Assembly: GCA_963706245.1 (NCBI GenBank) | Contig: OY970151.1 | Location: 238,994-302,993, forward strand | DNA length: 64,000 bases | Reading direction: 5' to 3' | DNA from: an uncultured Candidatus Saccharibacteria bacterium | GTDB lineage: Bacteria; Patescibacteriota; Saccharimonadia; Saccharimonadales; UBA4665 | Part shown: piece after piece, positions 23,963 through 63,939 of the stretch | Layout of the letters: each line of letters opens with the position of its first letter | Numbering within the stretch: the stretch's first letter is position 1 | Position numbers and translations under genes: made by a program | The notes under the pieces: model-generated | What the model was told of the DNA's origin: nothing | Databases searched by the model: none | The model's input: only the letters and a program-made list of their open reading frames with translations

Positions 23963-24076
23963 AAATACTACCCGTAGATTTAAGTTGCTGACCTAACTAT
24001 AGCACCCTTTAGTTAATAACCATTAGCATTCTATAATTATGATGCAAAATGCATACCAAAGATAGTTGACATAATA

Positions 24077-24105
24077 TTGACATAGAAGCTTATTTGTGGT
24101 AGTAT
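24077..24105 (+). promoter_or_regulatory. sigma70-like promoter TTGACA-17-TAGTAT, just outside the left inverted repeat
   Basis: TTGACA 24077..24082, 17-nt spacer, TAGTAT 24100..24105. A second TTGACA lies 11 nt upstream. Confidence 0.45.
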
Positions 24106-24150
24106 ATATGCCTTGTCGTGGGATTTCTATAAATCTTGCAACAAGCTCAT

Positions 24151-24183
24151 TAACAAGCTAGGTTATCACAATATATTTAATCT
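24151..24183. repeat. left arm of imperfect inverted repeat flanking the GC-rich cassette
   Basis: TAACAAGCTAGG-TTATCACAATATATTTAAT compared with the reverse complement of 26521..26554, TAACAAGCTAGGGCTATCACAAAACATTTAAT. That is a perfect 12-mer, then 8/9, then 8/10. Confidence 0.6.
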
Positions 24184-24548
24184 GTAAGCCCAGGGGTGAC
24201 CAGAGCAAGCTTATTGCTGTCTAATTAAGTTTAGATTGCCATTAGCTTGCCCTGGTTGCAGTATCTGTTGAGCATTTTTGCTCCAGTTATTCCCAAGGTG
24301 CAGAAAGAACATATTGCAACCAATTTCAATTTTAACTTTGTAACAATTTCATATTTTTATTTCTTCGAGTGGTAGGCGGTGACTTTTTGCACGCGTTTTA
24401 TCGTGTGCAGTAAGTCACTTCCAACCCGGAAATGGCTACTTTGTCCTAGATTCTTAGGTACTAAGTACAACTATTTCCCCCTGAAGGGAAATGCTTTACC
24501 AGGCAACACCAGCTGTTTAAATGCATTACCTAGGTAGAAGGAGTAAAA

Positions 24549-26132
24549 ATGAACACAACTAAACATAGACCAAGTCGGCTACGACAAAGATTTACTTTGT
24601 CCGTAGTTGGTGCGATGTGCGTGCTTTCAGTAGTAGGGGCTTCAGGAGCAATTCTGACGCCAGTTGCTGCAAGCGCAAGCACCGTGACGTCGGCGCCGGT
24701 GATTTACTACTCCACGGTAGGTGCAGATCCGGCAGTCCCAGCAGGTGTATGGACGGCTAAAGCTGCTGAAGTGGACATTCGTTCACAACAGTCGGCGGCC
24801 ACTATGCGCCTTGAGGGACTCACCGCACAGGAGATTGCCAAGCTTCGATCAGACGCAGCAAGTGTTCACACTTGTTGGCTGTATCACGGCATGCATCTTC
24901 CGTTTGTGAGTGAGGGTTATCCGGGATCAAAGGTCATGAAGAATGTGATCTATACCGGACCGACAAGGCAAGCGTGGTGTGAGTCTGCAACTGTCATCAC
25001 TGGCAGGAGTGTTGTGGTTGAACCCGGTAATGTGACTACGGTCAATAACCCCGATGGTTCGACGACAACTAACACCACCACCGACACAGTGGCCCGGACT
25101 CACTGGACCACCGCCAGCATCTTGATCATCGCTAAGTGCGGGAATTTGACCGGGCCTTGGACAAAGACCAGGACATCCCAGCACGTATCGGTAAGCAGGA
25201 CGCAGACCATGACGGCTCCGACCACCACGACTACGCAGCCGCCGCCGGCAACGACGACGTCTACGCAGCCACCGCCTCCACCACCACCGCCTCCACCACC
25301 ACCGCCGGTAGTGCCATCACTAGTCTGCAGCAGCCTTGCGCTGAGCAACCCTAGCGGCAATACCGTCGATGCATCGGGCGTTTTTACGGAGTCAAATGTG
25401 ACGACACCTATCACAGGAACGTTCACATGGGCATCGGACGTCACATCGTCGGCAACCATTGCAGGGAACAGTGCAAGTGGCAGTTACACTTACTCTGGTC
25501 CTGGGACTTATACGGTAACATTGGTCGTCCAGACAACTGGAATACCTGGAGCCGTTACGCCCCAATGCACTGGTACCATCACGATTCCACCTCCAACGCC
25601 GGCTCCCGCTTATGCTTGTTCAAGCCTTTCGGTGAACATCACAAGCGGGACGTCAGTCAATGCGACAGCCGATTTTGTCTCTAACGAGCCAGCGACTGTT
25701 TCATTCCTGATGAGTAGCAGTGGACCTGACAGCGTCACGGTACCGGGAACGATTACTGCCCCTGGTGTCGCAACGGCGTCATACACGTACAGCACAACTG
25801 GTACCTTCGTGGTAACAGCAACAGTCAATGCGGCTGGAACTGATTCCACGGGACCGACGACTTGCACGTTTACGGTGAACATTCCGTGCCCGGTTCAACC
25901 ACCGTGCCCGCCACCGACACCACCGTGCCCGCCGCCAGTTCAACCACCGTGCTCACCTCCAGCACCGCCGTGCCAACCAGCGCACAGCCCTGCCAAACCA
26001 ATTCAGGACCCCCGTGTCCTCCAAACCAACAGCAACCGCCTTGCTCCGGCGCAGGTAACTCGCCTTGTCCTCACCATTCCAATGGTGGCGACTCGAACAG
26101 TCCCTGCAACACTCAGCACGGCTAACGCCTGA
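24549..26132 (+). CDS. secreted Pro/Thr-rich protein with two PKD-like modules and a Cys-Pro-rich tail; atypically GC-rich
   Basis: AAGGAG RBS and a signal peptide. A 13-Pro run. Two repeats of the ...C(S)SL(A/S)...G(N)(T/S)V(D/N)A...YTYS..GT(Y/F)(T/V)VT... type. NCG-rich codon usage unlike the neighbours. Confidence 0.75.
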   Translation: MNTTKHRPSRLRQRFTLSVVGAMCVLSVVGASGAILTPVAASASTVTSAPVIYYSTVGADPAVPAGVWTAKAAEVDIRSQQSAATMRLEGLTAQEIAKLRSDAASVHTCWLYHGMHLPFVSEGYPGSKVMKNVIYTGPTRQAWCESATVITGRSVVVEPGNVTTVNNPDGSTTTNTTTDTVARTHWTTASILIIAKCGNLTGPWTKTRTSQHVSVSRTQTMTAPTTTTTQPPPATTTSTQPPPPPPPPPPPPPVVPSLVCSSLALSNPSGNTVDASGVFTESNVTTPITGTFTWASDVTSSATIAGNSASGSYTYSGPGTYTVTLVVQTTGIPGAVTPQCTGTITIPPPTPAPAYACSSLSVNITSGTSVNATADFVSNEPATVSFLMSSSGPDSVTVPGTITAPGVATASYTYSTTGTFVVTATVNAAGTDSTGPTTCTFTVNIPCPVQPPCPPPTPPCPPPVQPPCSPPAPPCQPAHSPAKPIQDPRVLQTNSNRLAPAQVTRLVLTIPMVATRTVPATLSTANA

Positions 26133-45856: not shown

Positions 45857-46017
45857 AACATAAGTAGCGTCTAAATCAATTTGATGTTATGAATATTATA
45901 GTAAAAAGACTATATAATAATCTTGACATAAATAACATATTAGAGTAAAGTAGCTTTCCAAAGGGTAGTTCGACCATAAATGAGAGTTTATGGCAATACT
46001 ATTAATTTAAAGGAGAG

Positions 46018-46761
46018 ATGTTTACAATGAACCAATCTTTTAGTAACTATAAGTTCCCACTTAAACTACAACTTTATGTAATAACTGGAACTATTGTCGT
46101 AGTGTCATTACTTGGCTGGGGCTTACTAAACTTAGCTCATGATAATCTTTCTCCTTCTACACGATTAGTCTCTTCAACCATTACCGGTACCTCAAACGGT
46201 GTTGTTGGCCCAACCGGCTTAACTGGTCCGCAGGGTCCACAGGGTGCAACCGGTCTAACTGGTGCTACTGGCCCACAGGGTCCGCAGGGCGCTACCGGCT
46301 TAACTGGTCCGCAGGGTCCACAAGGTGCGACCGGTCTAACAGGTGCCACTGGTCCCCAGGGTCCAATTGGCCTTACCGGTGCAACAGGTCCCCAGGGCCC
46401 AATTGGCTTAACCGGCCCTCAGGGCCCACAAGGTGACATTGGTGTTACTGGGGCTACCGGCGCGACTGGAGCAACCGGTGCTACTGGCCCGCAGGGTCCT
46501 ATTGGGATTACAGGTGATACAGGTCCTCAAGGCCCTGTTGGTATAACTGGTGCCACGGGCGCAACTGGAGCTACTGGCCCCCAGGGTCCTCAGGGCGATA
46601 TTGGTTTAACCGGTCCACAAGGCCCTCAAGGTGGGACCGGACTTACCGGAGACACCGGAGCTACAGGTCCTATCGGTCCTCAGGGTCTAACTGGTGACAC
46701 CGGCGCAACCGGTCCTCAGGGTCCCGGTGGGCGATACTGGTCCACAAGGTCCTCAAGGTGA
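46018..46761 (+). CDS. collagen-like (GXY)n surface protein, N-terminal part (TM anchor + triple-helix repeats); frame-disrupted
   Basis: N-terminal helix, then [16 protein letters not shown]... Leaves the GXY register at 46726. The likely true start is ATG 46027, 9 nt after GGAGAG. Confidence 0.75.
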
Positions 46762-47266
46762 TATTGGCCTTACTGGTCCTCAGGGTCCACAGGGTGATAC
46801 TGGTTTGACAGGTGATACTGGTCCACAAGGCCCTATTGGTGAAACAGGTGCGACTGGTCCTCAGGGTCCAATTGGAATTACTGGAGATACCGGTGCAACC
46901 GGTCCTCGAGGTCCCACTGGCCCTCAGGGTCCTATCGGGATAACTGGTGCGACTGGCCCACAGGGTGCAGTTGGTATTACTGGCGCAACCGGTGCTACTG
47001 GTCCAGCTGGTCCCCAAGGGGCTACTGGCTTAACTGGTGCTACAGGTCCTCAGGGCACGACTGGTCTTACCGGTCCTGCTGGCCCAACCGGCGCAACTGG
47101 TTTAACGGGTGCCACAGGTGCGCAGGGTCCTATCGGTCTTACTGGCCCAGCTGGAGCCCAGGGTCCAATCGGTTTAACCGGTGCGACTGGCGCAACGGGT
47201 GCTACTGGAGCCACTGGCCCTCAAGGTCCTGCCGGTCCTACTGGTCCACAAGGTGCAGCTGGTCTA
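46207..47266 (+). repeat. coding Gly-X-Y triplet repeat tract (roughly 115-120 triplets)
   Basis: Continuous GGN-NNN-NNN periodicity with recurring GGTCCNCARGGN units. Confidence 0.9.
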
Positions 47267-47539
47267 CTTAGCGGCTCTACTATTGTTACTGGTACCCCCG
47301 TTGTTTCCTCAAGTTCCACGAACGCAGGAACGACAACAACTGGAACAGCTACTTGTGCTACCGGTAAGATCCTACTCGGTGGTGGTGCCTTTCTATCAAC
47401 AACCGGCTATGCTGATTTTGCACTAACGGCCTCATATCCTAGTAGCAGTACTACCTGGACGGCAACCGCTACGACTACAGTTAGTCAGTTTAACGGCAAG
47501 ACAGTGACTATTACGGCCTACGCAGTTTGTAGCGAATAA
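46694..47539 (+). CDS. collagen-like (GXY)n surface protein, C-terminal part with about 90-aa globular Thr/Ser-rich tail
   Basis: [16 protein letters not shown]... continues the repeat. Tail is ...[17 protein letters not shown]...[10 protein letters not shown]. Confidence 0.75.
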
Positions 47540-47566
47540 TAAAAATATTTGTAGAACCTATATAAA

Positions 47567-47591
47567 GGCCCGCAGAAATAGCGGGTCTTTT
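47567..47591 (+). terminator. intrinsic terminator after the collagen-like gene
   Basis: ggcccgc-agaaata-gcgggtc (one G-U pair) followed by tttt. Confidence 0.65.
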
Positions 47592-47847
47592 AAATTTATG
47601 ACTTCTTTAAGAGTTATCACTTATAAACAAGAATATGACATGATGTACGTATTACGTCGGCAGAGATACACTTCTTCGGGATGCCTGTTTTACGCCAACA
47701 TTTCGTGAGGTTGACGCAGTTGACTTTACACTAGAACAGATGGCCGAGGTGATTGCCAGGATTCATGTGATTGGTAGCTCTAGCCAAGATTTGACAGTAA
47801 CCAGGACTACTCCTCATACTAAGTAGTTGTAATGAGGGGAGTGATAT

Positions 47848-48585
47848 ATGGGGAAAATGATTGAAGTACAGGCCGATAAGCCAGTAGATGCCTATTTGGC
47901 TGAACCGTTAGGCCCAGTAAAAGGCAGTATTATAGTGATCCACGAAGTTTGGGGACTGGATAATCACATTAAATCGGTAGCTGATCGTTATGCCGCTGAA
48001 GGCTACATTGCTCTGGCCCCAAGTCTCTTTGAGCTGAAAGATCTCACTTCAGATGAAATTGCCAAGCTAAAAACTGACTTGTTTGACGAGGTAAAGCGAG
48101 TAGAAATTCAACCGCAGCTTAGAAAGCTTATGGCGCCGATGCAGGCTCCCGAATTTGGTGCACTGACAGATGGTCGAGTAAGGGCTTGTTTTAATTATCT
48201 ATACGATTTGCCGACAAGTAGTCAAAAAGTTGCTGTTACCGGCTTCTGTTTTGGCGGTACCCATAGTTATAGTCTGGCGGTGGCAGAGCCCAGACTGAAG
48301 CTAGCTCTGCCATTTTATGGGCACAGTGACCAGTCAGTTGAAGAACTAAAGAATATCACTTGCCCAATTAGAGCTTTCTACGGTCAAAATGATGAGCGTC
48401 TAATATCAGGACTTGACGATCTAAAAAGCCGAATGGCTGAGGCTGGTGTTGATTATTCGGCTAAAGTTTATCCAGACTGTGCCCATGCCTTCTTTAATGA
48501 TTCCAACCCGATTGTCTATAACCAAGCGGCCGCAGAGGATGCTTGGGAAGTAGCCAAAAGTGAACTAGCTAAAGTTATGAGCTAA
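47848..48585 (+). CDS. dienelactone hydrolase family protein
   Basis: GGGGAG RBS. VIHEVWGLDNHIKSVADRYAAEGYIALAPSLF and GFCFGG nucleophile-elbow motifs. Confidence 0.85.
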   Translation: MGKMIEVQADKPVDAYLAEPLGPVKGSIIVIHEVWGLDNHIKSVADRYAAEGYIALAPSLFELKDLTSDEIAKLKTDLFDEVKRVEIQPQLRKLMAPMQAPEFGALTDGRVRACFNYLYDLPTSSQKVAVTGFCFGGTHSYSLAVAEPRLKLALPFYGHSDQSVEELKNITCPIRAFYGQNDERLISGLDDLKSRMAEAGVDYSAKVYPDCAHAFFNDSNPIVYNQAAAEDAWEVAKSELAKVMS

Positions 48586-51927: not shown

Positions 51928-52599
51928 ATGCAAGAATCTGTCTCTCTGCCTGAAATAAGGCAAACCAATCGTTTAAGAGCCGCTTTAGGTCAAATTTATA
52001 ACTCCGGGGCGCTCCTGATCGCCGGGGTCATGGTATCGGCTGAGACTATTGATAGAGGTGCCTTTGTTGTCCGTGCCGATAACCCAGTACCACTGGAAGC
52101 AGAGAGGGCAATTCCCTCAGCTTTCATTACCCCCGAGGGCGACTATAGCAGAGCGCTTGGAGTCAGCGCCCAGGTTGGCCTAACGGCTCTTGGTGTTGGC
52201 TTGGCTCGTAAAACCTCGTCATTGCCTGAGGTGGCTGGCGTCTCCCTGACTGCTCAGCTAGTTGGCTGTGCGGCCGATGCTGCGGTTGAAAGAACTAACT
52301 TGCTGACTCATGCTGAAAAAGCTCAAGAAGACGTTGGCTCGTCGTCTATTTACGTGGCATTGATTGGAAAATATTTGCTTGATAAACACGCCGAGGCAGA
52401 GAATAAGCTACCCTGGCGTGTTGGGATTGGGGCTTTTGTGACAGGAGCAGTAGTATTGATACCTCTAGCAGAGGGTAGTGGCGGTGGTGGCAAACTGGAC
52501 GTTGTCTCTCACACTGCTAGTTTAGTTGTTGCCTACGGTGCCCACAAATTCTCAGAGTTCAAGAAATCGCGCCGACCCAACCATGAATCAGCTAAATGA
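51928..52599 (+). CDS. hypothetical membrane protein
   Basis: 223 aa with several Ala/Gly-rich hydrophobic segments. Confidence 0.5.
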   Translation: MQESVSLPEIRQTNRLRAALGQIYNSGALLIAGVMVSAETIDRGAFVVRADNPVPLEAERAIPSAFITPEGDYSRALGVSAQVGLTALGVGLARKTSSLPEVAGVSLTAQLVGCAADAAVERTNLLTHAEKAQEDVGSSSIYVALIGKYLLDKHAEAENKLPWRVGIGAFVTGAVVLIPLAEGSGGGGKLDVVSHTASLVVAYGAHKFSEFKKSRRPNHESAK

Positions 52600-54163
52600 C
52601 AATTGGATCGTCGGTAAAGTCAGCTTTCTTAGAAAAATAGATTATGCCGCAAACTAAACCGGTAGCGATTAACATTGTACCGGCAATATTTAGAGCAATC
52701 GTTAGACCGCTGCCGAAGGCTGCATAGGCAGCATTAGTTACCTGAGTTACCAGCTGAGCGTGCTTAATAAGTATTGACGGTGATATTGCAACTCCGGGTG
52801 GGGTGTTGCCACCGTGCGTGATAGCGTAGACTGCAAATGACTGAAAGTTAGCCGGTAAGCCCAGGGCTTTTAGTTGCAAGGCTAATTTAGAAGTTAACTG
52901 AGCGTTTACAATTGAACCAAGGACAGCTACGCCAAAGACACCACCAAGTTCCCTGAATGTATTAACGGTTGAGGCGGCCATGCCGGATCGCTCCTGGGGC
53001 ACAATGTTCAAAACTGAGGAGGTCATGGTTACCAGGCTTACTCCAAAGCCGATTCCCGATATAACCAGTGCCCAGGCCAGCGTCCCGGCGCTGACGTTCG
53101 GTTGAATAACGCTATTAACAATAAATATACCGCCGCCGGAGATTAAGCAACCGGCAATTGTTAATTGGGTGGTATGATGCGCGGCGTTCCAGCGACCGGC
53201 CAGTAGAGCACCGGTAACAATAGCCGCCGTCATAGCTAAAAAGGCTAGGGCTATGTCATATCCGGAAAAGCTGGCAATTAACTGCAGGTAAAGCGCAACA
53301 AAGAAAAAGACCGCGAAGATTCCAAAGTTAGTGGCAAAGGCCACAATATTGGCTATAGAAAACTGTAGCCTTTTAAAGTATTTGAGCGGCAAGACCGGAT
53401 CTTTTTTCTTTGATTCAATTATTACAAAAGCGATAGCCGAGATAATTGAGCCAACAAACAGAAATACAATCCAACCACCACTATATCCACTTTCCTCGCC
53501 ACTTATTAAAGCTCCAACCACCCCACTGATAGCCAGTCCACCGGCGATTAATCCGGCTAAATCCAGTTTTCGGCCTTTGGGATCAGAGCTTTCCGGCAGG
53601 TATAGCCAGCCGGCAATAAACGCGACAAGACCTAAGATCGCTGAGAAGGCAAAGACGCCACGCCAAGAATAAAAACCGATTATAACGCCGCCAATTATTG
53701 GGCCGAAGGCTAGAGCAATGCCGCTAACCGCTGCCCATATACCAAGTGCCTTAGAGCGGGCTGCTCGTTCCGGATATAGATGGCGAATCATTGATAATGT
53801 GCCCGGTTCGCTGGCTGCGGCACCGACACCCATAATTATTCGTCCGGCGACTAACATCCCGACCGTATCGGAAAAGGCGGCAAGGACTGAACCGGCTATA
53901 AACAGGGCTACACCACCCAGCAGGACTTTCTTGCGCCCCCAGATGTCGCCTAGGGTGCCACCGGTTAACATAAAGACTGCAAAGACTAACATGTAGGCGT
54001 CAACAATCCACTGCAGATCCTGGACGCCAGCACTCAGTGAAGACTGAATACTTGATAGAACTACACTAACAATGGTGTTATCGAGGAAGGTTAAGAAGAG
54101 AATTACACAGATAATGACTAAAGAGCGTCGATTGGATGTTAATCGCTTAACTGCTGCCAGCAC
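52592..54163 (-). CDS. MFS transporter, DHA2 (EmrB/QacA-like, 14 TM), intact
   Basis: FLDNTIVSVVL, GTLGDIWGRKK and 14 hydrophobic helices. Confidence 0.9.
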   Translation of the reverse strand: MLAAVKRLTSNRRSLVIICVILFLTFLDNTIVSVVLSSIQSSLSAGVQDLQWIVDAYMLVFAVFMLTGGTLGDIWGRKKVLLGGVALFIAGSVLAAFSDTVGMLVAGRIIMGVGAAASEPGTLSMIRHLYPERAARSKALGIWAAVSGIALAFGPIIGGVIIGFYSWRGVFAFSAILGLVAFIAGWLYLPESSDPKGRKLDLAGLIAGGLAISGVVGALISGEESGYSGGWIVFLFVGSIISAIAFVIIESKKKDPVLPLKYFKRLQFSIANIVAFATNFGIFAVFFFVALYLQLIASFSGYDIALAFLAMTAAIVTGALLAGRWNAAHHTTQLTIAGCLISGGGIFIVNSVIQPNVSAGTLAWALVISGIGFGVSLVTMTSSVLNIVPQERSGMAASTVNTFRELGGVFGVAVLGSIVNAQLTSKLALQLKALGLPANFQSFAVYAITHGGNTPPGVAISPSILIKHAQLVTQVTNAAYAAFGSGLTIALNIAGTMLIATGLVCGIIYFSKKADFTDDPIVI

Positions 54164-54746: not shown

Positions 54747-54971
54747 TTAACCAATATCTTCGATATCTTCAAGCCTTATTGGGATACCTGTATTACCGAA
54801 ATATTCACTATCTTGCATTTGTTCAATATTGGTAAGCGCACGCTGTCTTCTGGCTATTTGAAGCGAACCAATAAAGCGGCCTACCGGCGTTCTAGCTGTA
54901 TCCCGTCTCAGCGAAACTTCGTGAAGCTCGTCTATAATTCTAGCTTTTCGCTGAGGATTAGTCTCGTCCAT
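54747..54971 (-). CDS. small hypothetical protein
   Basis: 74-aa ORF in a free interval. Confidence 0.45.
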   Translation of the reverse strand: MDETNPQRKARIIDELHEVSLRRDTARTPVGRFIGSLQIARRQRALTNIEQMQDSEYFGNTGIPIRLEDIEDIG

Positions 54972-55035
54972 AGTGATTATTAGACTCTAAGCTCTAAGTT
55001 ATGTCAACATTAGAGATCGAAGTACTACTGCAAAG

Positions 55036-55590
55036 CTACAATCTTGGGTCGTCGTTTGGTAAACCAGGTTGTTCGAACCATTTTTGGTCAATGTCAGCAT
55101 CTGAATAGCCTTCTACCATCAGCCCTATTACTACCGCCAACCCTTGAGTATTGCCTTGAGCCAGGATGAAGTTGCGACCATATTGATCGGCTATGGTGTT
55201 AGGCAGTAGGTTATCGGCTAGGCTTAAATCAATTTGAGCATTTCGATCTCCTCCGTAGACTCGTCGCAGTCTACGACCATTTAGCGTGGCAATGTAGCTA
55301 TGAGAATCGTTGCGGTTGCTGGCGGGCGTAAGCCAGACGGTGCCTATAGGCGTATCGTTTTTTGAGACAACTATTGATTCGTACTTGGACTGCGCCGAGT
55401 AGCCGGGATCAACTTCCGGTGGATTTTTATGGACAGTCACTAGTCTTCCGTCGGGTAATGCTATCTCTGTTCTCATAGCCAGGTCGTAACTGAATAAACT
55501 GTAACGACGTACTCTCCTGTCTGCAAAGGTTTCAGTAACCTCTAGTAATTCATGACTTTTTGCACTCCTGGGTGGGGGGAATAGATTCAC
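55036..55590 (-). CDS. hypothetical protein
   Basis: 184-aa ORF with no signal peptide and no motif recognised. Confidence 0.55.
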   Translation of the reverse strand: MNLFPPPRSAKSHELLEVTETFADRRVRRYSLFSYDLAMRTEIALPDGRLVTVHKNPPEVDPGYSAQSKYESIVVSKNDTPIGTVWLTPASNRNDSHSYIATLNGRRLRRVYGGDRNAQIDLSLADNLLPNTIADQYGRNFILAQGNTQGLAVVIGLMVEGYSDADIDQKWFEQPGLPNDDPRL

Positions 55591-55656: not shown

Positions 55657-56424
55657 TTATTTCTGAACTTCTTTAGCCATAAACTGCTTAACTGATGCTA
55701 CTGTATCCATGAACTGGGCTGGGAATACAATCGTCGAGTTTTTGTCTGAAGCGATTTCAGACAACACCTGTAGGTTTCTGAGCTGCAGCGCGATCGGGTG
55801 CTTAGAGATTACATCAGCTGCTTTAGCGAGGGCTGCAGCCGATAGTTGCTCTCCCTCGGCGGCTATAATCTTAGCCCGCTTTTCTCGTTCGGCCTGAGCG
55901 CCGGCGCTCATAGCACTTTGCATTTCCTGAGGTAACTTAATGTCCTTGAGCTCCACCATCGAGACATAGACTCCCCACTTTTCAGTAGTTTTGTCTAAGA
56001 TGGCTTTTACGGCGTCGTTAATTTTAACCGTTTGGCTTAGGACATCATCAAGTAAGTTTTGTCCGACAACATTACGAACGGTCGTTTGAGCAATTTGGTA
56101 GATAGCCGATAGGACATTCTCGATTGCTACAACTGATTTAACGGCATCGGAGACTTGGTAATATGCAACGGCGGCGACATCAATTGAGACATTGTCTTTG
56201 GTTATAACGTTCTGGGAGTCGACTGGTAGGGTAATGGTTCTTAGATCAACCTTGCGGAGCTTATCAATAATGGGCACAATAAAACAAATACCGGGCTTTT
56301 TAACGTCCTTACGCAGCCTACCAAGTCGCAAGACCACACCCTCTTCATACTGTTTTATAATCTTTAGGCTACTGCCAAAAAATAATACAATCACTATAAT
56401 CACAAAAGTAATAAAGCCTGCCAT
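55657..56424 (-). CDS. SPFH/band-7 (stomatin-like) protein
   Basis: N-terminal TM, then the IIKQYEEGVVLRLGR...PVDSQNVITKDNV...AEREKRAKIIAAEGE pattern. Start set at ATG 56424, with AAGGAG 7 nt upstream. Confidence 0.85.
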   Translation of the reverse strand: MAGFITFVIIVIVLFFGSSLKIIKQYEEGVVLRLGRLRKDVKKPGICFIVPIIDKLRKVDLRTITLPVDSQNVITKDNVSIDVAAVAYYQVSDAVKSVVAIENVLSAIYQIAQTTVRNVVGQNLLDDVLSQTVKINDAVKAILDKTTEKWGVYVSMVELKDIKLPQEMQSAMSAGAQAEREKRAKIIAAEGEQLSAAALAKAADVISKHPIALQLRNLQVLSEIASDKNSTIVFPAQFMDTVASVKQFMAKEVQK

Positions 56425-56499
56425 ATAATATCTCCTTCTTTTATTAATAGTCCTCCTGATGTTATTTTTTAGCAAGTCCGGCTCGCCAACTTTGCTATA

Positions 56500-56919
56500 A
56501 TGCGGAATATGGATAAATTAAAATCACACCCGTTTGTTCAAAAACCTGAAGACTTCATGAAGAGAGAAGAAGGTAGTTTTAATAAATTTAATCAGAAATT
56601 TGCCGTCTGGATTGGAACCCACGTCGGCTCAATGTACTGCTTCTATCTATTTAATGTTTTGGCATTGTTATCGGCGAAAGCGGCCTTTCAGACCCATAAC
56701 CTAGTGCCCATAATTAACTGGGTAAGCTCTAACTGGATTCAGTTGATTCTTCTGCCAGCCATTATGGTGGCTCAAAATATTGCCCAAGATGCCCAGGAGG
56801 CTAAGTCCCAAGCTGACCACTTGACGCTGACTTACCTGGCAAACCTGCAAGACGAGCAAATGACTGAGCTCAAAAACCAAACTACTATCCTCGAGCAATT
56901 AAAGAAGATCGCTAAGTAG
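56500..56919 (+). CDS. two-TM protein, DUF1003-like
   Basis: ...GTHVGSMYCFYLFNVLALL...LILLPAIMVAQNIAQDAQEAKSQADH... resembles the DUF1003 layout. Confidence 0.5.
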   Translation: MRNMDKLKSHPFVQKPEDFMKREEGSFNKFNQKFAVWIGTHVGSMYCFYLFNVLALLSAKAAFQTHNLVPIINWVSSNWIQLILLPAIMVAQNIAQDAQEAKSQADHLTLTYLANLQDEQMTELKNQTTILEQLKKIAK

Positions 56920-56938: not shown

Positions 56939-56967
56939 TTGCAAAAAAAGCATAAATAATGTATAAT
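56939..56967 (+). promoter_or_regulatory. promoter TTGCAA-17-TATAAT for array gene 1
   Basis: The -10 box ends 11 nt before the ATG at 56979. No Shine-Dalgarno sequence in between. Confidence 0.55.
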
Positions 56968-56978
56968 AGCTTTTAATT

Positions 56979-57446
56979 ATGAGTTTATCAGGTGAAACAT
57001 CACAGTCTACACCAGAAGCAGTTTTGGTATTTCACCAAGATGTGAAGGATACTCTCCGGCTAAACGCCGTCTCAGCCTGTGTTCTTAGGGACGAGGACGA
57101 AATAATAGCTCCTACCTTTCTAGCCGGTAAATTGGAAGCCGAAGCCAATGTCTTCGAGGACATTGCTATTTTTGGTCATGGCAGCGGGGATAACAAAGTA
57201 TATTTTGTTTCAATCGGGAAAGATCAGAAGTATGAAGTCACCCGTAGTGGTGCATATAGCCCAGAGCCGACTATCGATGATCTCTTTGTCAACGAGCTTA
57301 GTATTGAGGACATGTGCTACATAGGTGGCTTATTAAGAAGTCCGCGTATTGAGTGGTCTAGGAAGCTGACGAATGACATGATCGGGAATCTTCTACAAGG
57401 GACACAAGAAGCTCTGGGTGACGCGGGAACCACTGGGGATAGTTAA
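56979..57446 (+). CDS. family-B small acidic protein 1 (MSLSGE...)
   Basis: Member of the six-gene paralog array. Motifs FLAGK...EDIAIF...KYEVT. Confidence 0.7.
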   Translation: MSLSGETSQSTPEAVLVFHQDVKDTLRLNAVSACVLRDEDEIIAPTFLAGKLEAEANVFEDIAIFGHGSGDNKVYFVSIGKDQKYEVTRSGAYSPEPTIDDLFVNELSIEDMCYIGGLLRSPRIEWSRKLTNDMIGNLLQGTQEALGDAGTTGDS

Positions 57447-57476
57447 ATCCAAAATACGGTCTCGAACAGCATAAAA

Positions 57477-57505
57477 TTGCAAGAACATTTAAATTAGGAT
57501 ATAAT
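57477..57505 (+). promoter_or_regulatory. promoter TTGCAA-17-TATAAT for array gene 2
   Basis: The -10 box ends 10 nt before the ATG at 57516. No Shine-Dalgarno sequence. Confidence 0.55.
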
Positions 57506-57515
57506 ACTGTTAAAT

Positions 57516-58034
57516 ATGGAGAATATTGACTTTCTTGATTCTATGGGCTCTGGAGACTCACGAGTTGAGGACTATACTAATGCCCAGAAAACCGAAGCTC
57601 AGCGTCGAGCCGACAGGGAGGCTATAAGCCTACTAAACGATACTATAAATGACAGCGTAAATGGTCTATTTAGGGATTACGGTGACATAGCGAACTTAAC
57701 CTTTTTCGACAACTTTGAAATGATACTTGGTGGTAAAATACCTGCAAGTCAGGAACGCCCCGATGATTATATTGATATCACCTTAATTCGGACGCAAGCT
57801 GATACCTGGCGAACAACGAAGATAATAGTTGGTGAGGATACCTACACAGTATCGGCACTTGATGGGGTAAGGTTAATTGATGGTACTCGGAACCTAGAGC
57901 CGAATAGGGGACAGCTTGAGAGCCTGGATTTTATGCTCGGAGAATGGAATCAAACAGCCCTCTATACCCTAGAGGACAGTGCTCGTCTAGCAGGGCAGTG
58001 GCGAGAGTCACAGAAAAAAAGTCTTGAAAAATAA
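57516..58034 (+). CDS. family-B small acidic protein 2
   Basis: ILGGKIPASQERPDDYIDITLI...DTYTVS. The N-terminus differs (MENIDFLDSMGSGD). Confidence 0.65.
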   Translation: MENIDFLDSMGSGDSRVEDYTNAQKTEAQRRADREAISLLNDTINDSVNGLFRDYGDIANLTFFDNFEMILGGKIPASQERPDDYIDITLIRTQADTWRTTKIIVGEDTYTVSALDGVRLIDGTRNLEPNRGQLESLDFMLGEWNQTALYTLEDSARLAGQWRESQKKSLEK

Positions 58035-58051
58035 TACTTTAATATAAATAT

Positions 58052-58525
58052 ATGAGTTTTGCGGGTGAGGAGAATTTCCCAGGTACTGAACCGGAAAAAG
58101 TCGAAGAGCTTATTTTAAGAGATAACCTTGGAGATTTGTTTGAACATCATTTCTACGACTGCGCAATTATAAATAACGATTATGATTCAAACCAGCCTCT
58201 AAGAACATTACTGGGCGGTATCATGAGGTTCGAAGACGGGCGGTTCGAGGATATTAGTATTTCTCGGTCAGGCCCGAACCCAAGGGCTGTCTATGAAGTC
58301 GCCTATCTAAATAAGAAGTATCTAATAACCACAGAGGCGACTGTAGCCAGCCACGACCATGATCGGCGAGCGTTTTTGAGTGAATTAAGGGAAATCAAAG
58401 GCTATGTTACAGGTGGTATTACTACCTATAGCCTAGCAGCCTCAGAACGGCTTGTTGAGCGGCAGCGGCAGATAGAGCGTATGGCCCGTAAAAGATGGCC
58501 CTTTGGTCGAGGGAAGAAGTCCTAA
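58052..58525 (+). CDS. family-B small acidic protein 3 (MSFAGE...)
   Basis: LLGGIMRFEDGRFEDISIS...KKYLIT. 17 nt after gene 2. Confidence 0.7.
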   Translation: MSFAGEENFPGTEPEKVEELILRDNLGDLFEHHFYDCAIINNDYDSNQPLRTLLGGIMRFEDGRFEDISISRSGPNPRAVYEVAYLNKKYLITTEATVASHDHDRRAFLSELREIKGYVTGGITTYSLAASERLVERQRQIERMARKRWPFGRGKKS

Positions 58526-58528
58526 GTC

Positions 58529-58558
58529 TTGCAGATAGTCTCAAATAGTGCTTTGATA
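58529..58558 (+). promoter_or_regulatory. promoter TTGCAG-18-TTGATA for array gene 4
   Basis: The same cTTGCAG...gcTTTGATA architecture recurs at 59629..59658. The ATG lies 7 nt after the -10 box. Confidence 0.45.
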
Positions 58559-58565
58559 TATCGAT

Positions 58566-59111
58566 ATGAGCTTTAAGGGTGAGAGCCAAAATCCTAATCG
58601 AGAGTTTGATTCGACTAGAGAGTGGTTATTAAGAGATGATCTGGGAGAGGTTATTTCTATATATGCCGATCATTTTGTGCCGGTAAATGAAGGCAACAGC
58701 GAACTTGGTATACCAGCCGAAATATTACTAGGCGGACAGACTGATGGTGATAAGATCGACTCTTTGATCGACATAAGCCTTACGCTGCGAGTTGTCGACG
58801 GACAGCGGATTGCCACTATTTCAGCCGGCGGGGAAAGCTACGCAATATCCGATGATGCCGTGTGGCATGCTAATGATCCCTCGCAAGAAGTTATCGGCGA
58901 TGATATTGATGAGATAAGGCTGTGGCTGTCTCCAGCTACAACCTGGGATAAAAACCATTCGGCGCGAATAGTTTCTTACCTCCATGCTCCTGCTGACATG
59001 GACGAGGAACTTCAGGACTTACTAGACTTTGAGGGTGCAGGGGCTGAAGCTCCCACAATTGCTTCTCGTATTGTGTCTGCCATAAAATCATGCTTTGATA
59101 GACGAAGATGA
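58566..59111 (+). CDS. family-B small acidic protein 4 (MSFKGE...)
   Basis: LLGGQTDGDKIDSLIDISLT...ESYAIS. Confidence 0.7.
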   Translation: MSFKGESQNPNREFDSTREWLLRDDLGEVISIYADHFVPVNEGNSELGIPAEILLGGQTDGDKIDSLIDISLTLRVVDGQRIATISAGGESYAISDDAVWHANDPSQEVIGDDIDEIRLWLSPATTWDKNHSARIVSYLHAPADMDEELQDLLDFEGAGAEAPTIASRIVSAIKSCFDRRR

Positions 59112-59593
59112 GCTTTGCTAATGAAGAACCGCATGTCGACCTGGAGTGGAATGAGAACGAAACTTTCATGATGCGACAAGATTTGGAACTTCTACGGGTA
59201 CGCGAGTACCATAATTTTATAGTTCTGCAAACAGGGGACGGTCTTCAAAAACCATTTGAAACATTTTTAGGTGGCGTTTTGCGTCCGGAAACATCCAGCC
59301 CGAGAGATGTCTGGATTTCTATTTATAGACTCGGTAAGAGTGAGGTAAGCACTGTTAGCGAGGGCTCTAAAAAATATCTCATATTACCAAGCTTCGTAGA
59401 AGTCCAGGAACGGCAAAATCCTTCTAGGAAAGCTACTCTTCAGGATATTGATCATCTTCGTTTTCTGCTTAATGAGAATGTTGGGCATTGGAGCGAAGAG
59501 GATTCCTGGCGAATAGCTGAGAAATTGCACGAGACCGATAAGCGTCGGCCAACCTACAGATTCCTTGGTCGCTTATTCGGGCCCCCGGCGTAA
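59108..59593 (+). CDS. family-B small acidic protein 5 (MSFANE...)
   Basis: FLGGVLRPETSSPRDVWISIY...KKYLIL. ATGA overlap with gene 4. Confidence 0.7.
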   Translation: MSFANEEPHVDLEWNENETFMMRQDLELLRVREYHNFIVLQTGDGLQKPFETFLGGVLRPETSSPRDVWISIYRLGKSEVSTVSEGSKKYLILPSFVEVQERQNPSRKATLQDIDHLRFLLNENVGHWSEEDSWRIAEKLHETDKRRPTYRFLGRLFGPPA

Positions 59594-59628
59594 GGGCTAA
59601 TATTAGTTGGTAGCAGTTTTGCTTAAGC

Positions 59629-59658
59629 TTGCAGTTTAGACAAATATACGCTTTGATA
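59629..59658 (+). promoter_or_regulatory. promoter TTGCAG-18-TTGATA for array gene 6
   Basis: The ATG lies 8 nt after the -10 box. No Shine-Dalgarno sequence. Confidence 0.45.
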
Positions 59659-59666
59659 AAGCTACT

Positions 59667-60134
59667 ATGAGTATACCGGGAGAGGGTTTGGGTTTTGATT
59701 CTTCAGCTGAGACTGAACCTGTGTTGACTTTAACTGAGCAAATTGATCAGTTGTTTATTAAATACGCCGATAAACTCGGAGTTGTCTACAATGAAGCTGA
59801 TCCAGACTGGCCTGTTATACGGGTTCTGAGCCGGGGGGTGCCATCTGAATCTCATGGGAAGATGGTGCTAGCGCACATAATTAGTTTATGCTATCCCAAT
59901 GAGCAAGCGAGTACCACTGTTATCCTTGATAAGATGCAGTTTGAAATTGACAGTTTTGGTGCTCGACGAGTCGATAATCACGCTGAGGATCCAAACGAGG
60001 AAGCGGTTGTCACAGATAAGGTCTTGGAGATTATTGGCCCCGGTAATGCTATGTGGAGTCAATCACTCGCTAGGGTTAAGGCTAGGGAAATACGAGATGC
60101 TCACAAGATGTTCGGCCGTGATATTTCTAGTTAG
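59667..60134 (+). CDS. family-B small acidic protein 6 (MSIPGE...)
   Basis: The most diverged member (VLSRGV...MQFEID). Confidence 0.6.
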   Translation: MSIPGEGLGFDSSAETEPVLTLTEQIDQLFIKYADKLGVVYNEADPDWPVIRVLSRGVPSESHGKMVLAHIISLCYPNEQASTTVILDKMQFEIDSFGARRVDNHAEDPNEEAVVTDKVLEIIGPGNAMWSQSLARVKAREIRDAHKMFGRDISS

Positions 60135-60320: not shown

Positions 60321-60668
60321 ATGGCAAGATCTAAGCGAACGAAACTTATCGCAATGACCATAGCTATCGGACTCCCAATCTTTCTCCCCAGAACAGTACT
60401 TGCAGCATCAACCGCGGACGTAAGTTCGATAAGTTCGTTCCTGCAAAACATAATTGAAGCGGCAGCTGGATTAGCTGGTCTGGTTGCGACAGGCTTTTTT
60501 GTATTAGGTGGCTTTTCTTACATTACGAGCTCGGGAAATCCAGAACATCTAGAGAAAGCTAAACGCACCTTGCTCTACAGCAGCGTAGGGCTCGCGATAA
60601 CCATTGCGGCCTTTGCGTTATCGACAATCGTAACGCAATTAGCCACTAGCGCATTCGGCGGAAATTAA
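60321..60668 (+). CDS. T4SS pilin-like protein (VirB2/TrbC-type, Gram-positive/CPR T4SS_pilin form)
   Basis: GGGAG RBS and a signal peptide. Two helices around GGFSYITSSGNPEHLEKAKR. Confidence 0.75.
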   Translation: MARSKRTKLIAMTIAIGLPIFLPRTVLAASTADVSSISSFLQNIIEAAAGLAGLVATGFFVLGGFSYITSSGNPEHLEKAKRTLLYSSVGLAITIAAFALSTIVTQLATSAFGGN

Positions 60669-60669
60669 A

Positions 60670-61914
60670 ATGAAGCCGAGCATCCTCCACCTACTTAACC
60701 AGGTGGGGGATGCCTCTGCAGTTACCTCTACACTGAATGGTTATATAACCCCAACAGTTGAAGCCATAGTGGGATTGGCAACTCTAGCTGCAACCGGTTT
60801 TTTGATAGTTGGTGGCATCGGCTATATGACTAGTTCAGGGCGACCAGACAAATTAGAGCATGCAAAGAAAGTAATACGTAATGCGCTGATCGGATTAGTT
60901 GTAGTTCTCGGAGCTGGAGTATTAACTACTATTCTACTCCATGCCTATCAAGGGTCTACTGGTAATGGGGTTAGTAAGGTTCCGGCACTTGTGAACATAC
61001 AACCAACTCCTGTGTCTAGTGGTTTAGTAGCGATTTTAGTCGATGCGATAGTAGGATTACTACGAAACATTATCGATACTGCTGCTCAGCCATTTATCAA
61101 CGCTCTAACTTACTTCACTCACGCTACACCACTAATGGCCACCAACGGTTCAGTCCTAGCTCTTTGGGGTGTGATGGTAGCTATGGCTGACGCTTTGTTC
61201 GTGTTGGTTGTGGTACTTTTAGGTTTCCACATAATGAGCGCATCAGCACTTGGTTTGGATGAAATCGAATTTAAACATCTACTACCTCAATTAGCTATAG
61301 TTTTTCTTCTGATCAATACATCAATCTTTGCTATAGACAGCATTATTAGTTTGTCTAATGTCATGATTAGCGCGCTTTATGCTGCTTTTCCGGCTACGAC
61401 TGTTTGGAATGTACTAGACTCAATCGTAAATCAATCAGCTGGTCTCGGTCTGGTAGCCCTGTTTATCTTAATAGTTTTTATAATTCTATCAGTCGTCCTG
61501 TTAGTTTACTACGTTATGAGGTTAGTCGTTCTTTATCTTGGAGCAATTCTAGCGCCACTCGTATTTCTTCTTTGGCTAATACCAAGCTTTAAAGATTTTG
61601 TCTCCGCGGCCGTTAAGACTTATCTAACGACTATATTTGTTCTATTCGTGCATGTAACTATATTACTTCTAGCTGCATCAATCTTTGCAGGTATGTTGAA
61701 CGGTGGCCCAGTGACTGGGTTAAATCCTTTAATGGGGGCTATTGTTGGTATAGCAACTCTCATAACCCTACTTAAGACCCAGAAAATAATGATGGAGCTT
61801 AGTTATGTTAGTGTAGGGCCTAAAGCTCTTAGAAAGCTAGGTGGTCAATTTGTTACAGGAATTAGTTATATATCAACTAAGGCTAAGGCAGTAAATGCAG
61901 GGGCAGAAGAATGA
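60670..61914 (+). CDS. VirB6/TrbL-like polytopic T4SS channel protein with an N-terminal second pilin-like module
   Basis: Residues 30-95 repeat the pilin motif (GGIGYMTSSGRPDKLEHAKK). These are followed by about 7 further TM helices. Confidence 0.7.
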   Translation: MKPSILHLLNQVGDASAVTSTLNGYITPTVEAIVGLATLAATGFLIVGGIGYMTSSGRPDKLEHAKKVIRNALIGLVVVLGAGVLTTILLHAYQGSTGNGVSKVPALVNIQPTPVSSGLVAILVDAIVGLLRNIIDTAAQPFINALTYFTHATPLMATNGSVLALWGVMVAMADALFVLVVVLLGFHIMSASALGLDEIEFKHLLPQLAIVFLLINTSIFAIDSIISLSNVMISALYAAFPATTVWNVLDSIVNQSAGLGLVALFILIVFIILSVVLLVYYVMRLVVLYLGAILAPLVFLLWLIPSFKDFVSAAVKTYLTTIFVLFVHVTILLLAASIFAGMLNGGPVTGLNPLMGAIVGIATLITLLKTQKIMMELSYVSVGPKALRKLGGQFVTGISYISTKAKAVNAGAEE

Positions 61915-62300
61915 AAACTACGACCGTTCCTGCTCAAATTACGACAGTTGAAGATCGACTAGCTGGCAATCTAAGTCTTACCCAATTACTTCTCTTAGTC
62001 TCTCCAGTGTTTATATCCTGTTTAATCTACGTTGTCTTACCGCCATTTATTAAAATATCTCTCTTTAAGGTTTCCATATCAGTACTGATTTTCCTATTAT
62101 TCTCTGTTATGTCGATTCGTATCAAAGGAAAGATAATAATTTTGTGGTTATTTCTAGTAATGAAGTACAGAAACCGACCAAGATATTATCTCTACGATAA
62201 GAATGACGCAATCTTCAGGAAGATTAATACCGAACCCCTCAAAGAAGTTGAGTACCTAAAAGCTCAAGAACCTCAGAAAAGAAAAATATTCCCTAACTGA
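61911..62300 (+). CDS. PrgI/VirB3-like small membrane protein
   Basis: VPAQITTVEDRLAGNLSLTQLLLL followed by two helices. ATGA overlap with the upstream gene. Confidence 0.65.
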   Translation: MKTTTVPAQITTVEDRLAGNLSLTQLLLLVSPVFISCLIYVVLPPFIKISLFKVSISVLIFLLFSVMSIRIKGKIIILWLFLVMKYRNRPRYYLYDKNDAIFRKINTEPLKEVEYLKAQEPQKRKIFPN

Positions 62301-62392: not shown

Positions 62393-63004
62393 GTGTCCAT
62401 ATTACAGAAATCCTCTAGGCGTATATCCTCAAGGAGTCAGATTGACATTGAAGGAATTAGTGATGGAATTTTGCAACTAACAGGTAAGCAATATCGCGTT
62501 GCTCTGGAGATATCCTCCGTTAACTTCGAACTCAAAAGTGAGGCCGAACAAGACGCGCTAATCGAGACTTATCAGAGCTTCTTGAACTCACTTAGCTACC
62601 CAATGCAGATAATAATACGGATTAGAGAACTCGATCTAGCTAAATATCTAAAAGAATTTTTAGATAGCGTGTCCAATGAGTCTGAAGATATCTACAAGGA
62701 CCAAGTCAATAACTACTGTGAGTTTGTCTCAAGTTTAGTTGTAACCAATAAAATACTGGCCAGATCTTTTTATTTAGTTATCCCATTTGTCGGTGAAGAC
62801 ACTGATCCTGTGGTAGTTAAAGAACAGCTCGGGCTACAGAGCGAGCTGGCAGCTAAAGGACTCGCCAGACTTGGGATTCAAAGCAAGAAGTTAGACAGCC
62901 TGGGACTAATTGATCTTTTCTATAGTTTCTACTCACCAACTAAAGCAAAAATTCAACCTCTCTCTAAGCAAACCTTAAACCTTCTAAACCGAAGTTATTT
63001 ATGA
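62393..63004 (+). CDS. virB4: VirB4-like ATPase, N-terminal domain ORF
   Basis: AAAGGAG RBS + GTG start. IEGISDGILQLTGKQYRVALEISSVNFELKSEAEQDALIETYQSFLNSLSYPMQIIIR is the typical VirB4/PrgJ N-domain pattern. Confidence 0.7.
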   Translation: MSILQKSSRRISSRSQIDIEGISDGILQLTGKQYRVALEISSVNFELKSEAEQDALIETYQSFLNSLSYPMQIIIRIRELDLAKYLKEFLDSVSNESEDIYKDQVNNYCEFVSSLVVTNKILARSFYLVIPFVGEDTDPVVVKEQLGLQSELAAKGLARLGIQSKKLDSLGLIDLFYSFYSPTKAKIQPLSKQTLNLLNRSYL

Positions 63005-63939
63005 ATATGCAGCTAATGATAAAACGAGATAAGACTGGTCCCAAACAATATGCCATGAGTTTTGGCGAACAAGATCATTTAGACCTGCTTAGTTACTCTG
63101 GGCTCGAAGAAGAAAGTAGCTACCTCGTGATTGATGGACAATACGTTAGAGTCTTGTTTATCTCAGGATATCCCTACATTGCCTCTAGCGGTTGGCTAAA
63201 TTCGTTAATTAACTTTAATCATGATGCTGATATTAGCTACCACATAACAACTGTCGAATCGACCCAGGCGTTGCCTAAACTACATCGTAAAATTACTGAA
63301 CTAGAATCTACTAAGAGGGCTATGATCCGAAACGGTAAGATCGTTGGACCGGAAGTAACCGACCCGTTAGAATCAGCCATGGCTCTTAGAGATAAGATTC
63401 TTCGCGGCCAAGAAAAACTTTTCCAAGTATCAATTTACGTGTCTTTATTTGCCGGTAGCTTGAGTGATCTAGATAAGATAACCCAACTACTAGAAACTGT
63501 ATTTGCATCAAGAATGTTTTATTCAAAAATCGCTAGGTATCAGCAGCTTGAAGGCTTGCAGTCAATATTGCCTCGTGGACAGGATCAACTAAGTCAAAAA
63601 CGCAATCTAGATAGTAGTTCAGCAGCTCTTACTTTTCCGTTTATGAGTTCGGAACTAGTCCAAGAATCTGGCATACTCTACGGGGTAAACAAGTCTAACA
63701 ACTCACTAGTCATCCTAGATAGGTTTAGCCTTAACAATGCTAATAGTATCGTCTTTGCTCAATCAGGAAGCGGTAAGAGCTATGCCACTAAAGTTGAGAT
63801 TTTAAGACAGCTTATGCAGGGCGTTAAAGTAATTGTTATTGATCCGGAACGAGAATATAAAAGGCTAGCTGAATCAGTTAATGGAACTTATATAAAACTA
63901 TCTGCCAAGTCACGTAAAAGATTAATCCCTTTGACCTAA
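63001..63939 (+). CDS. virB4: VirB4-like ATPase, middle part with Walker A; truncated by a frame shift
   Basis: Walker A AQSGSGKSY. The ORF ends SAKSRKRLIPLT*, while the +2 frame reads KINPFDL.... Confidence 0.8.
   Translation: MNMQLMIKRDKTGPKQYAMSFGEQDHLDLLSYSGLEEESSYLVIDGQYVRVLFISGYPYIASSGWLNSLINFNHDADISYHITTVESTQALPKLHRKITELESTKRAMIRNGKIVGPEVTDPLESAMALRDKILRGQEKLFQVSIYVSLFAGSLSDLDKITQLLETVFASRMFYSKIARYQQLEGLQSILPRGQDQLSQKRNLDSSSAALTFPFMSSELVQESGILYGVNKSNNSLVILDRFSLNNANSIVFAQSGSGKSYATKVEILRQLMQGVKVIVIDPEREYKRLAESVNGTYIKLSAKSRKRLIPLT

Follow-up and report, generated by a model that had tools for sequence, protein, structure and literature searches.

What might a row of small, acidic and highly diverged proteins do for a member of the Saccharibacteria, and does it matter that their genes lie beside a secretion system? 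The question is raised by a locus in a 64,000-nucleotide stretch of DNA from an uncultured Candidatus Saccharibacteria bacterium (contig OY970151.1, positions 238,994 to 302,993 of the forward strand; hereafter the window), in which six genes in tandem, g1 to g6, end shortly before the pilin gene of a type IV secretion system (T4SS) operon. A preliminary description of this locus had taken the array to be a locally amplified, individually promoted and rapidly diverging repertoire coupled to the T4SS. Our analysis partly supports that interpretation: the array exists as described, evolves fast, differs in copy number between genomes and has its genes promoted separately, but is not coupled to the T4SS.

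A family of small acidic proteins without prior description

All six open reading frames (ORFs) were confirmed on the plus strand with the lengths originally given for their products (Table 1), as were the N-terminal motifs and the LLGG, D-I-x-I-[ST] and Y-x-I anchors. Four of the proteins begin MSLSGE, MSFAGE, MSFKGE or MSIPGE and g5 begins MSFANE, while g2, which begins MENIDF, carries a subfamily-specific N-terminal extension (M-x-N-I-[DE]-F) that it has in common with family member P0029. The genes are closely packed, with successive gaps from g1 to g6 of 69, 17, 40, -4 and 73 nt, and the 186 bp reported between the array and the pilin gene are indeed found from the g6 stop codon to the pilin ATG at 60321. 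As expected from the earlier description, neither a signal peptide nor a transmembrane helix was detected in the six proteins, and they contain no hydrophobic stretch (maximum Kyte-Doolittle hydropathy over 19 residues at most 0.92). Their isoelectric points (pI) range from 4.3 to 6.1 and their net charges from -2 to -20. The tails are more varied: g1 ends in an acidic segment, g3, g4 and g5 in Arg/Lys-rich, basic ones.

The six genes are true paralogs with mutual identities of 12-26%. In a leave-group-out test, in which each profile was built without the gene in question and its close relatives, every one of the six was still recovered by its profile (for example, hidden Markov models (HMMs) recovered g1 at E = 3.9e-12, g2 at E = 4.8e-9 and g3 at E = 2.5e-24), in agreement with the local expansion of a single family. 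A profile of the six proteins, searched against 1.84 billion representative proteins at E <= 1e-3, matched 53 proteins, namely the six window genes and 47 non-self sequences. Two of the 53 are repeat-protein artefacts; almost all of the remaining matches are 136-164 amino acids (aa) long and align from end to end.

None of the 48 aligned family members matched a Pfam entry, none of the six window proteins matched NCBIfam, PHROG or PADLOC, and the family profile found no match among PDB sequences. Pattern scans of IMG/VR, together with PLSDB and a phage collection, likewise gave no relatives, and the source names recovered for members read only 'hypothetical protein', one of them being labelled Ca. 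Nomurabacteria. Across the family the median pI is 4.65 and the median net charge -11, compared with a median pI of 8.5 for the large ORFs of the window. Over the final 20 residues the median charge is +1, and the tail is positive in just 54% of members. The array thus represents a small acidic family without prior annotation or description.

A predicted fold without significant structural matches

Confident AlphaFold2 models of g4 and g6 have one topology in common. The g4 model has a predicted local distance difference test score (pLDDT) of 83.7 overall and above 92 across the core (residues ~20-140), with a low-confidence C-terminal tail, and the g6 model reaches a pLDDT of 87.5 and a predicted template modelling score of 0.80. 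In both models a disordered N-terminus of ~10-15 residues is predicted to lead into a long helix, followed by a short strand and a five-strand antiparallel meander and then by two C-terminal helices. Foldseek gave no significant match for either model in PDB or for the g4 model in BFVD: the best E values were 0.16 and 0.26 (PDB) and 0.017 (BFVD), template modelling (TM) scores did not exceed 0.34, and the top matches differed between g4 and g6. The modelled fold is therefore probably new relative to PDB and BFVD. Resemblances to MAM33/CapZ, the MHC platform and TriX were considered and rejected, being non-significant in Foldseek and inconsistent between the two models; the TriX immunity protein appeared among the matches just at E = 0.67 and a TM score of 0.24.

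The most strongly conserved positions are Gly57 (98%), Trp127 (90%), Leu55, Gly56, Tyr92 and Leu22. Within the disordered N-terminal motif M-S-x-[PSA]-[GAE]-E, Glu6 is kept in 81% of members, and the only other widely conserved polar positions are Arg23 and Ser/Thr132; the conserved residues include no constellation of Cys, His, Asp or Lys suggestive of catalysis. Since conservation falls on structural residues (Gly, Trp, Leu, Tyr) and the three polar positions are unlike an active site, the proteins would be binders rather than enzymes. The N-terminal motif persists through synonymous changes of codon, and so is selected at the level of the protein.

A fast-evolving, copy-variable island at a fixed site

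We compared rates of change between the window and other loci (designated by L numbers), using L032, L034 or L005. The genes of the flanks have 87-94% identity, with nonsynonymous divergence (dN) of 0.04-0.11, synonymous divergence (dS) of about 1.0-1.9, which is near saturation, and a dN/dS ratio (omega) of 0.03-0.10. Orthologue-like array pairs, in contrast, are 30-63% identical with dN of 0.26-0.75, which is 5-15 times flank dN. As dS within the array is saturated or undefined, only dN relative to the flanks was used there; with flank dS as the yardstick, an omega proxy comes to roughly 0.2-0.6, which is strongly elevated.

The array is colinear with that of L005, where the four genes a to d are orthologue-like partners of g1, g2, g5 and g6, respectively, whereas g3 and g4 are without one-to-one partners in L005 and that locus has two extra genes. 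Orthologue-like genes for g1 (L005:523 and L032:10702) are about 30-32% identical to it, and those for g5 are 41% (L005:1683) and 39% (L037:1859) identical. The nearest relatives of g4 are P0010 (62% identity) and P0008 (about 45%); for g3 no one-to-one orthologue was found in any related array. Subfamilies and gene order are common to the genomes, which places the origin of the paralogs before the genomes diverged. The preliminary description had called the expansion old or fast-evolving. It proves to be both, the divergence being fast and the expansion old rather than recent.

To define its distribution we anchored a scan of GTDB representative genomes and another of JGI metagenomes on the 139-aa protein encoded immediately upstream; the two scans gave 75 loci, and the family HMM was run across all loci. 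The array was present in all 13 loci whose 139-aa gene has at least 84.5% identity to the window copy and is followed by at least 600 bp (~10 independent arrays), compared with one of 52 loci with a less similar 139-aa gene. Wherever present, it begins immediately downstream of the 139-aa gene; among the array-bearing relatives that were compared, the product of this gene and the window copy are 85-91% identical. The arrays hold 2-7 domains, and the next-closest relatives none, which substantiates the copy-number variation anticipated earlier. Two further examples, found by exact look-up of members, comprise six genes (L005/L006) and three genes (L007/L008); both the L005 and the L007 array directly follow the 139-aa gene, and the divergent Band_7 gene on its other side is shown for L007. 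Two-domain fusions of adjacent paralogs occur in four contigs, of an A-B type in L002 and L037 and of an E-F type in L032 and L036. At L009/L038, where the 139-aa protein is 82% identical, the order MFS, 162-aa, Band_7 and 139-aa gene is kept and a gene for an MBL-like hydrolase replaces the array.

The closest named genomes are Ca. Saccharibacteria or Saccharimonadales metagenome-assembled genomes (MAGs), including one from a bog. Family members that are more distant (P0026, P0034, P0033 and P0041) are singletons in unrelated contexts, and Pfam scans of their neighbours gave no informative domains. The array is thus an island restricted to one clade, a genus-level group of Saccharimonadales from metagenomes of peat and soil, in which its chromosomal site is fixed. 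It evolves by fast substitution combined with gain, loss and fusion of genes.

A promoter-like element accompanies the genes

The array had originally been delimited from position 56939. This position belongs to the -35-like hexamer of a promoter-like element preceding g1, and is not coding sequence. Elements of the same kind stand at a fixed distance before g1, g2, g4, g5 and g6 (Table 1), in line with the proposal of individual promotion. For g3 there is a -10-like box with no -35 match, and this gene, which follows g2 by 17 nt, is probably co-transcribed with it.

In the 64-kb window the strict pattern TTGCAR-N17-TWTRAT-N(7-12)-ATG has four occurrences, each at the start of an array gene (g1, g2, g4 and g6), and it was absent from shuffled sequence, a test that is not independent, the pattern having been derived from the same genes. 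At the other 94 loci it was reported at 22 positions, almost all of them ending at family-gene starts; the clear exception is L011, a locus without an array. That the element is found before family genes of other loci therefore provides independent support for a promoter-like module. A relaxed pattern matched five of the six array genes, compared with three of 54 other large ORFs. Three ORFs outside the array (with stop-to-stop ORF ends near 1558 and 51928 on the plus strand and 45886 on the minus strand) also have a promoter-like box 7-12 nt before an ATG, so that leaderless starts may occur elsewhere in this genome. Shine-Dalgarno-like motifs are rare in the window, being found for 8 of 60 large ORFs.

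Because the -10-like boxes end 7-12 nt before the ATG and no Shine-Dalgarno motif is present, the transcripts of the array are predicted to be leaderless or nearly so. The unit that has been duplicated is the promoter-like element together with its gene.

The T4SS is a neighbour in this genome only

Downstream of the array lie genes for a stand-alone pilin, a pilin-VirB6/TrbL fusion, a PrgI/VirB3-like protein and VirB4, the last in pieces (Table 1). A 203-aa TraC-like N-terminal ORF of VirB4 overlaps, by ATGA, a 312-aa ORF with the Walker A motif that stops at 63939, and a VirB4-like INPFDL motif continues in another frame to the end of the window. The independent short-read contig L001 confirms the first of these splits only. 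The fragmentation could mean that the gene has decayed to a pseudogene, that its split is programmed or that the assembly has an error at a homopolymer.

Elsewhere the array has a different neighbour. In the seven loci, representing six distinct arrays (L005, L007/L035, L032, L034, L036 and L039), whose readable sequence extends beyond the array, the gene that follows is Mannosyl_trans2-like; in L005 and L007 it is on the opposite strand and is followed by NUDIX and other genes. BLASTP at 1e-5 found no match to the pilin, VirB6, PrgI or VirB4 in the fetched flanks of any related array locus, five distinct arrays having several kb to 10 kb of flank. The T4SS adjoins the array only in this genome (the window and L001); the adjacency is peculiar to it, and the linkage is not conserved. 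The proposal of a module coupled to the T4SS is thus not supported. Of the two properties whose joint absence would have spoken against the original interpretation, linkage to the T4SS is missing across genomes, whereas variability is pronounced.

Patescibacteria T4SS genes have been described as chromosomal clusters without relaxases in which a coupling-protein gene is rarely nearby, and the system is reported to be essential for epibiotic growth in Saccharimonadia, its substrates being unknown (PMC12102498). The same survey describes diverged pilin arrays but no family resembling the array proteins (PMC12102498). The present locus should not serve as evidence for T4SS effectors, the adjacency being an accident of one genome.

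Other features of the neighbourhood

The 139-aa protein that marks the upstream boundary belongs to a widely conserved family that is itself uncharacterised (window and loci L013-L025), with 72-82% identity in the closer of the fetched Saccharibacteria/Patescibacteria MAGs, 37-50% in more distant Saccharibacteria MAGs and 37-41% in MAGs of Verrucomicrobiota and Acidobacteriaceae. The 139-aa gene that precedes the g4-like protein P0008, which is the same or nearly so in each case, reads as only 66% identical in L003 and as 86-87% in L004 and L033; the mismatch in L003 is probably a low-quality scaffold stretch rather than a second lineage. On the far side of Band_7, two unannotated minus-strand genes (54747-55590; 74 and 184 aa) lie before the gene for a conserved 162-aa membrane-anchored protein. 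L009 has neither of them there, and in L032 the protein of 184 aa has only 50% identity, compared with 87-94% for its neighbours; this is a second small variable spot.

Schlafen-group-3-like helicase genes are found a few kb downstream of arrays (L007, 14699-18080; L005, 11176-12162), together with MazG-like and AbiH genes in L007, and directly adjoin a distant singleton family gene in L092 (10674-13131). This proximity may mark a defence-island neighbourhood or may be coincidence. The 64-kb window contains no tRNA, rRNA or Rfam family. Its G+C content is raised to 0.50-0.52 in the bins 24001-26000, 46001-48000 and 52001-54000, against about 0.43 elsewhere, the last of these bins coinciding with the MFS transporter gene.

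Table 1. Positions of the array genes, their upstream elements and flanking genes within the window
Feature	Position	Strand	Description	Source
SPFH/Band_7 gene	55657-56475	-	Conserved flank; about 89% identical in relatives	
139-aa gene	56500-56919	+	Two-helix membrane protein; weak DUF1003-like match; upstream boundary of array	
g1 promoter-like element	56939-56967	+	TTGCAA-N17-TATAAT; 11 nt before ATG	
g1	56979-57446	+	155 aa; family member, subfamily A	ORF list
g2 promoter-like element	57477-57505	+	TTGCAA-N17-TATAAT; 10 nt before ATG	
g2	57516-58034	+	172 aa; family member	ORF list
g3 -10-like box	58038-58043	+	TTTAAT; 8 nt before ATG; no -35 match	
g3	58052-58525	+	157 aa; family member	ORF list
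g4 promoter-like element	58529-58557	+	TTGCAG-N17-TTTGAT; 8 nt before ATG	
g4	58566-59111	+	181 aa; family member	ORF list
g5 promoter-like element	59071-59099	+	TTGTGT-N17-TTTGAT; 8 nt before ATG; within g4 3' end	
g5	59108-59593	+	161 aa; family member; overlaps g4 by ATGA	
g6 promoter-like element	59629-59657	+	TTGCAG-N17-TTTGAT; 9 nt before ATG	
g6	59667-60134	+	155 aa; family member; orthologue L005:2228 (62%)	
T4SS_pilin gene	60321-60668	+	PF18895	Domain scan
Pilin-VirB6/TrbL fusion	60670-61914	+	N-terminal PF18895; directly after stand-alone pilin gene	
PrgI/VirB3-like gene	61911-62300	+		Domain scan
VirB4 in pieces	62393-63004 and 63001-63939	+		Domain scan

Discussion

The results presented above lead us to a model in which the array encodes a fast-evolving repertoire of non-enzymatic cytoplasmic proteins that bind and neutralise, in the manner of immunity or anti-defence proteins, during conflict between organisms. 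We favour this model tentatively, and at rather less than an even chance. If correct, the proteins would act inside the epibiont as a polymorphic set, each paralog being matched to a fast-evolving partner of its own, for example a toxin or an effector from a host or competitor. They may also work in pairs, since neighbouring paralogs are repeatedly found fused. Tandem genes for cytoplasmic paralogs that are small, acidic and diverged are a typical form of orphan immunity repertoire, for example among SUKH/Imm proteins. Actinobacterial hosts attack Saccharibacteria with Esx-secreted effectors (PMC13622651), so that an arms race exists. It is the combination of small, acidic, signal-less and diverged paralog arrays and tandem fusions with this host attack that leads us to prefer a neutralising role.

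Several observations weigh against this model. No toxin or other cognate partner gene adjoins the family in ~11 arrays or beside the distant singletons, most of the contigs being short, and no known immunity family has sequence or structural similarity to it. With an omega proxy below 1 and dS near saturation, positive selection is not demonstrated, and relaxed constraint fits as well. In addition, the conserved disordered N-terminal motif is unusual for immunity proteins and could equally be a signal for export or recognition.

Indeed, the fit of this motif to an export signal keeps alive the alternative that the proteins are secreted effectors or host-specificity factors, delivered to the interior or the surface of the host bacterium through the Patescibacteria T4SS or by some other route, with the N-terminal motif or the basic tails as the signal; linkage to the T4SS would not be required. 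Fast divergence and variable copy number are what such a repertoire would exhibit, the short N-terminal motif is conserved in the protein through synonymous variation, the last 20 residues are slightly positive in otherwise acidic proteins, with Arg/Lys-rich tails in g3, g4 and g5, and in this genome the array lies 186 bp from the pilin gene of a system that is reported to be essential for epibiotic growth, with unknown substrates (PMC12102498). However, that adjacency is confined to one genome, the seven loci with a mannosyltransferase-like gene having no T4SS marker in their fetched flanks, and VirB4 is fragmented here. A positive C-terminus is found in just over half of the members, a coupling-protein gene is rarely near virB4 in Patescibacteria (PMC12102498), and the next-closest relatives are without the array although T4SS genes are reported to be widespread across the phylum. 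We therefore regard the effector model as rather doubtful.

A broader formulation would embrace both possibilities: a polymorphic host-interaction repertoire with a new fold, whose leaderless and separately promoted paralogs would either each counter a different effector, of the host's Esx type or from a competitor, or be exported by means of the conserved N-terminal M-S-x-P-G-E as a novel type of signal for secretion or recognition. In this specific form the proposal is doubtful. If true, the repertoire would decide the range of hosts open to a strain.

A cellular component specific to the clade and without a role in conflict, such as subunits of a hetero-oligomeric cytoplasmic assembly, or regulators or adaptors, evolving fast under weak constraint, is in our judgement unlikely. 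It would account for the retention of paralog subfamilies and their order between genomes, for the recurrent fusions of adjacent paralogs, which suggest physical partnership, for a common promoter-like element, which suggests co-regulation, and for the omega proxy below 1. It accords poorly with the absence of the array from relatives whose flanks are still 82% identical, with a copy number that varies from 2 to 7 and with dN 5-15 times that of the neighbouring genes, and the family is too patchy and too rare (47 in 1.84 billion) for a core function.

Could the proteins instead be anti-defence factors, such as anti-restriction proteins or acidic mimics of DNA, that were brought in by mobile elements and left at a chromosomal hotspot? 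They are small and strongly acidic, the locus is variable, a hotspot whose cargo differs between relatives, and Schlafen-group-3 helicase, AbiH and MazG-like genes are found at a distance of a few kb in L007 and L005, or directly adjoin the singleton in L092. Nevertheless, no integrase, transposase or phage gene adjoins the arrays, IMG/VR pattern scans, PLSDB and the phage collection hold no relatives, the site and the order of paralogs are stable between genomes, and searches of Pfam, PHROG and PDB and with Foldseek revealed no likeness to known mimics such as ArdA and Ocr. Such an origin seems to us distinctly improbable. Finally, secretion chaperones or adaptors of the CesT/SycE or IcmS/IcmW/VirE1 type serving T4SS substrates would also be small acidic alpha/beta proteins adjoining the T4SS in this genome, but they are a very remote prospect given the lack of a fold match to any PDB chaperone, of candidate substrates or other non-family genes interleaved with the array and of conserved T4SS linkage, and given hypervariability and 2-7 copies, which would be unexpected for adaptors.

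Little is known of how Patescibacteria epibionts interact with their hosts, and none of their effectors or counter-defence proteins has been defined. The present locus is a concrete and well-delimited candidate, without annotation or structural match in PDB and BFVD and with the conserved flanks and hypervariable core that are a signature of conflict. The promoter-like cis-regulatory module can be used to find further members. Immediate testing is limited by the fact that the clade is uncultured and represented by peat and soil metagenomes.

How does the array compare with known systems? MAM33/p32 and CapZ-type acidic proteins have a topology that we take to be similar (a helix at the N-terminus, consecutive antiparallel strands, helices at the C-terminus and a surface that is acidic). 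Among the weak Foldseek matches of g4 (E at least 0.16, TM score at most 0.19) were CapZ chains and T. brucei p22, but these matches did not recur for g6 and had no sequence signal, so that this is a resemblance only. The T4SS effector families of Bartonella (Beps), Legionella and Coxiella are alike in being locally amplified, fast-diverging repertoires of host-dependent bacteria, and our array abuts a T4SS operon in this genome and includes some basic C-terminal tails. It differs in that the T4SS linkage is not conserved and no effector domain or validated signal is recognisable; moreover, the T4SS here is of the Patescibacteria monoderm-conjugation-like type, with unknown substrates (PMC12102498).

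The VirB2 pilin arrays of Saccharimonadia comprise 2-11 highly diverged tandem paralogs with about 25% identity, and have been proposed to track host diversity (PMC12102498). The pilins are PF18895 membrane or secreted proteins, whereas the six array proteins have no PF18895 domain, signal peptide or transmembrane helix, and the only true PF18895 genes here are the two downstream of the array, at 60321-60668 and 60670-61914. What the two arrays do have in common is their organisation, as tandem and highly diverged paralogs of Saccharimonadia.

With orphan immunity arrays (SUKH/Imm; acquired interbacterial defence clusters) the likeness extends further, to small, mostly acidic cytoplasmic proteins encoded by diverged same-strand tandem paralogs, with rapid turnover, variable copy number, no catalytic residues and occasional tandem fusions. 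The array nevertheless differs from them in having no sequence or fold relation to SUKH or any Imm family, no adjoining toxin in the genomes examined, no recombinase or mobility genes and a fixed site, and its family differs in the disordered conserved N-terminal motif and in its own promoter-like module, predicted to be leaderless. Taken together, the family is undescribed and its fold probably so, while its evolutionary behaviour is of a known kind, that of a polymorphic paralog array in a symbiont.

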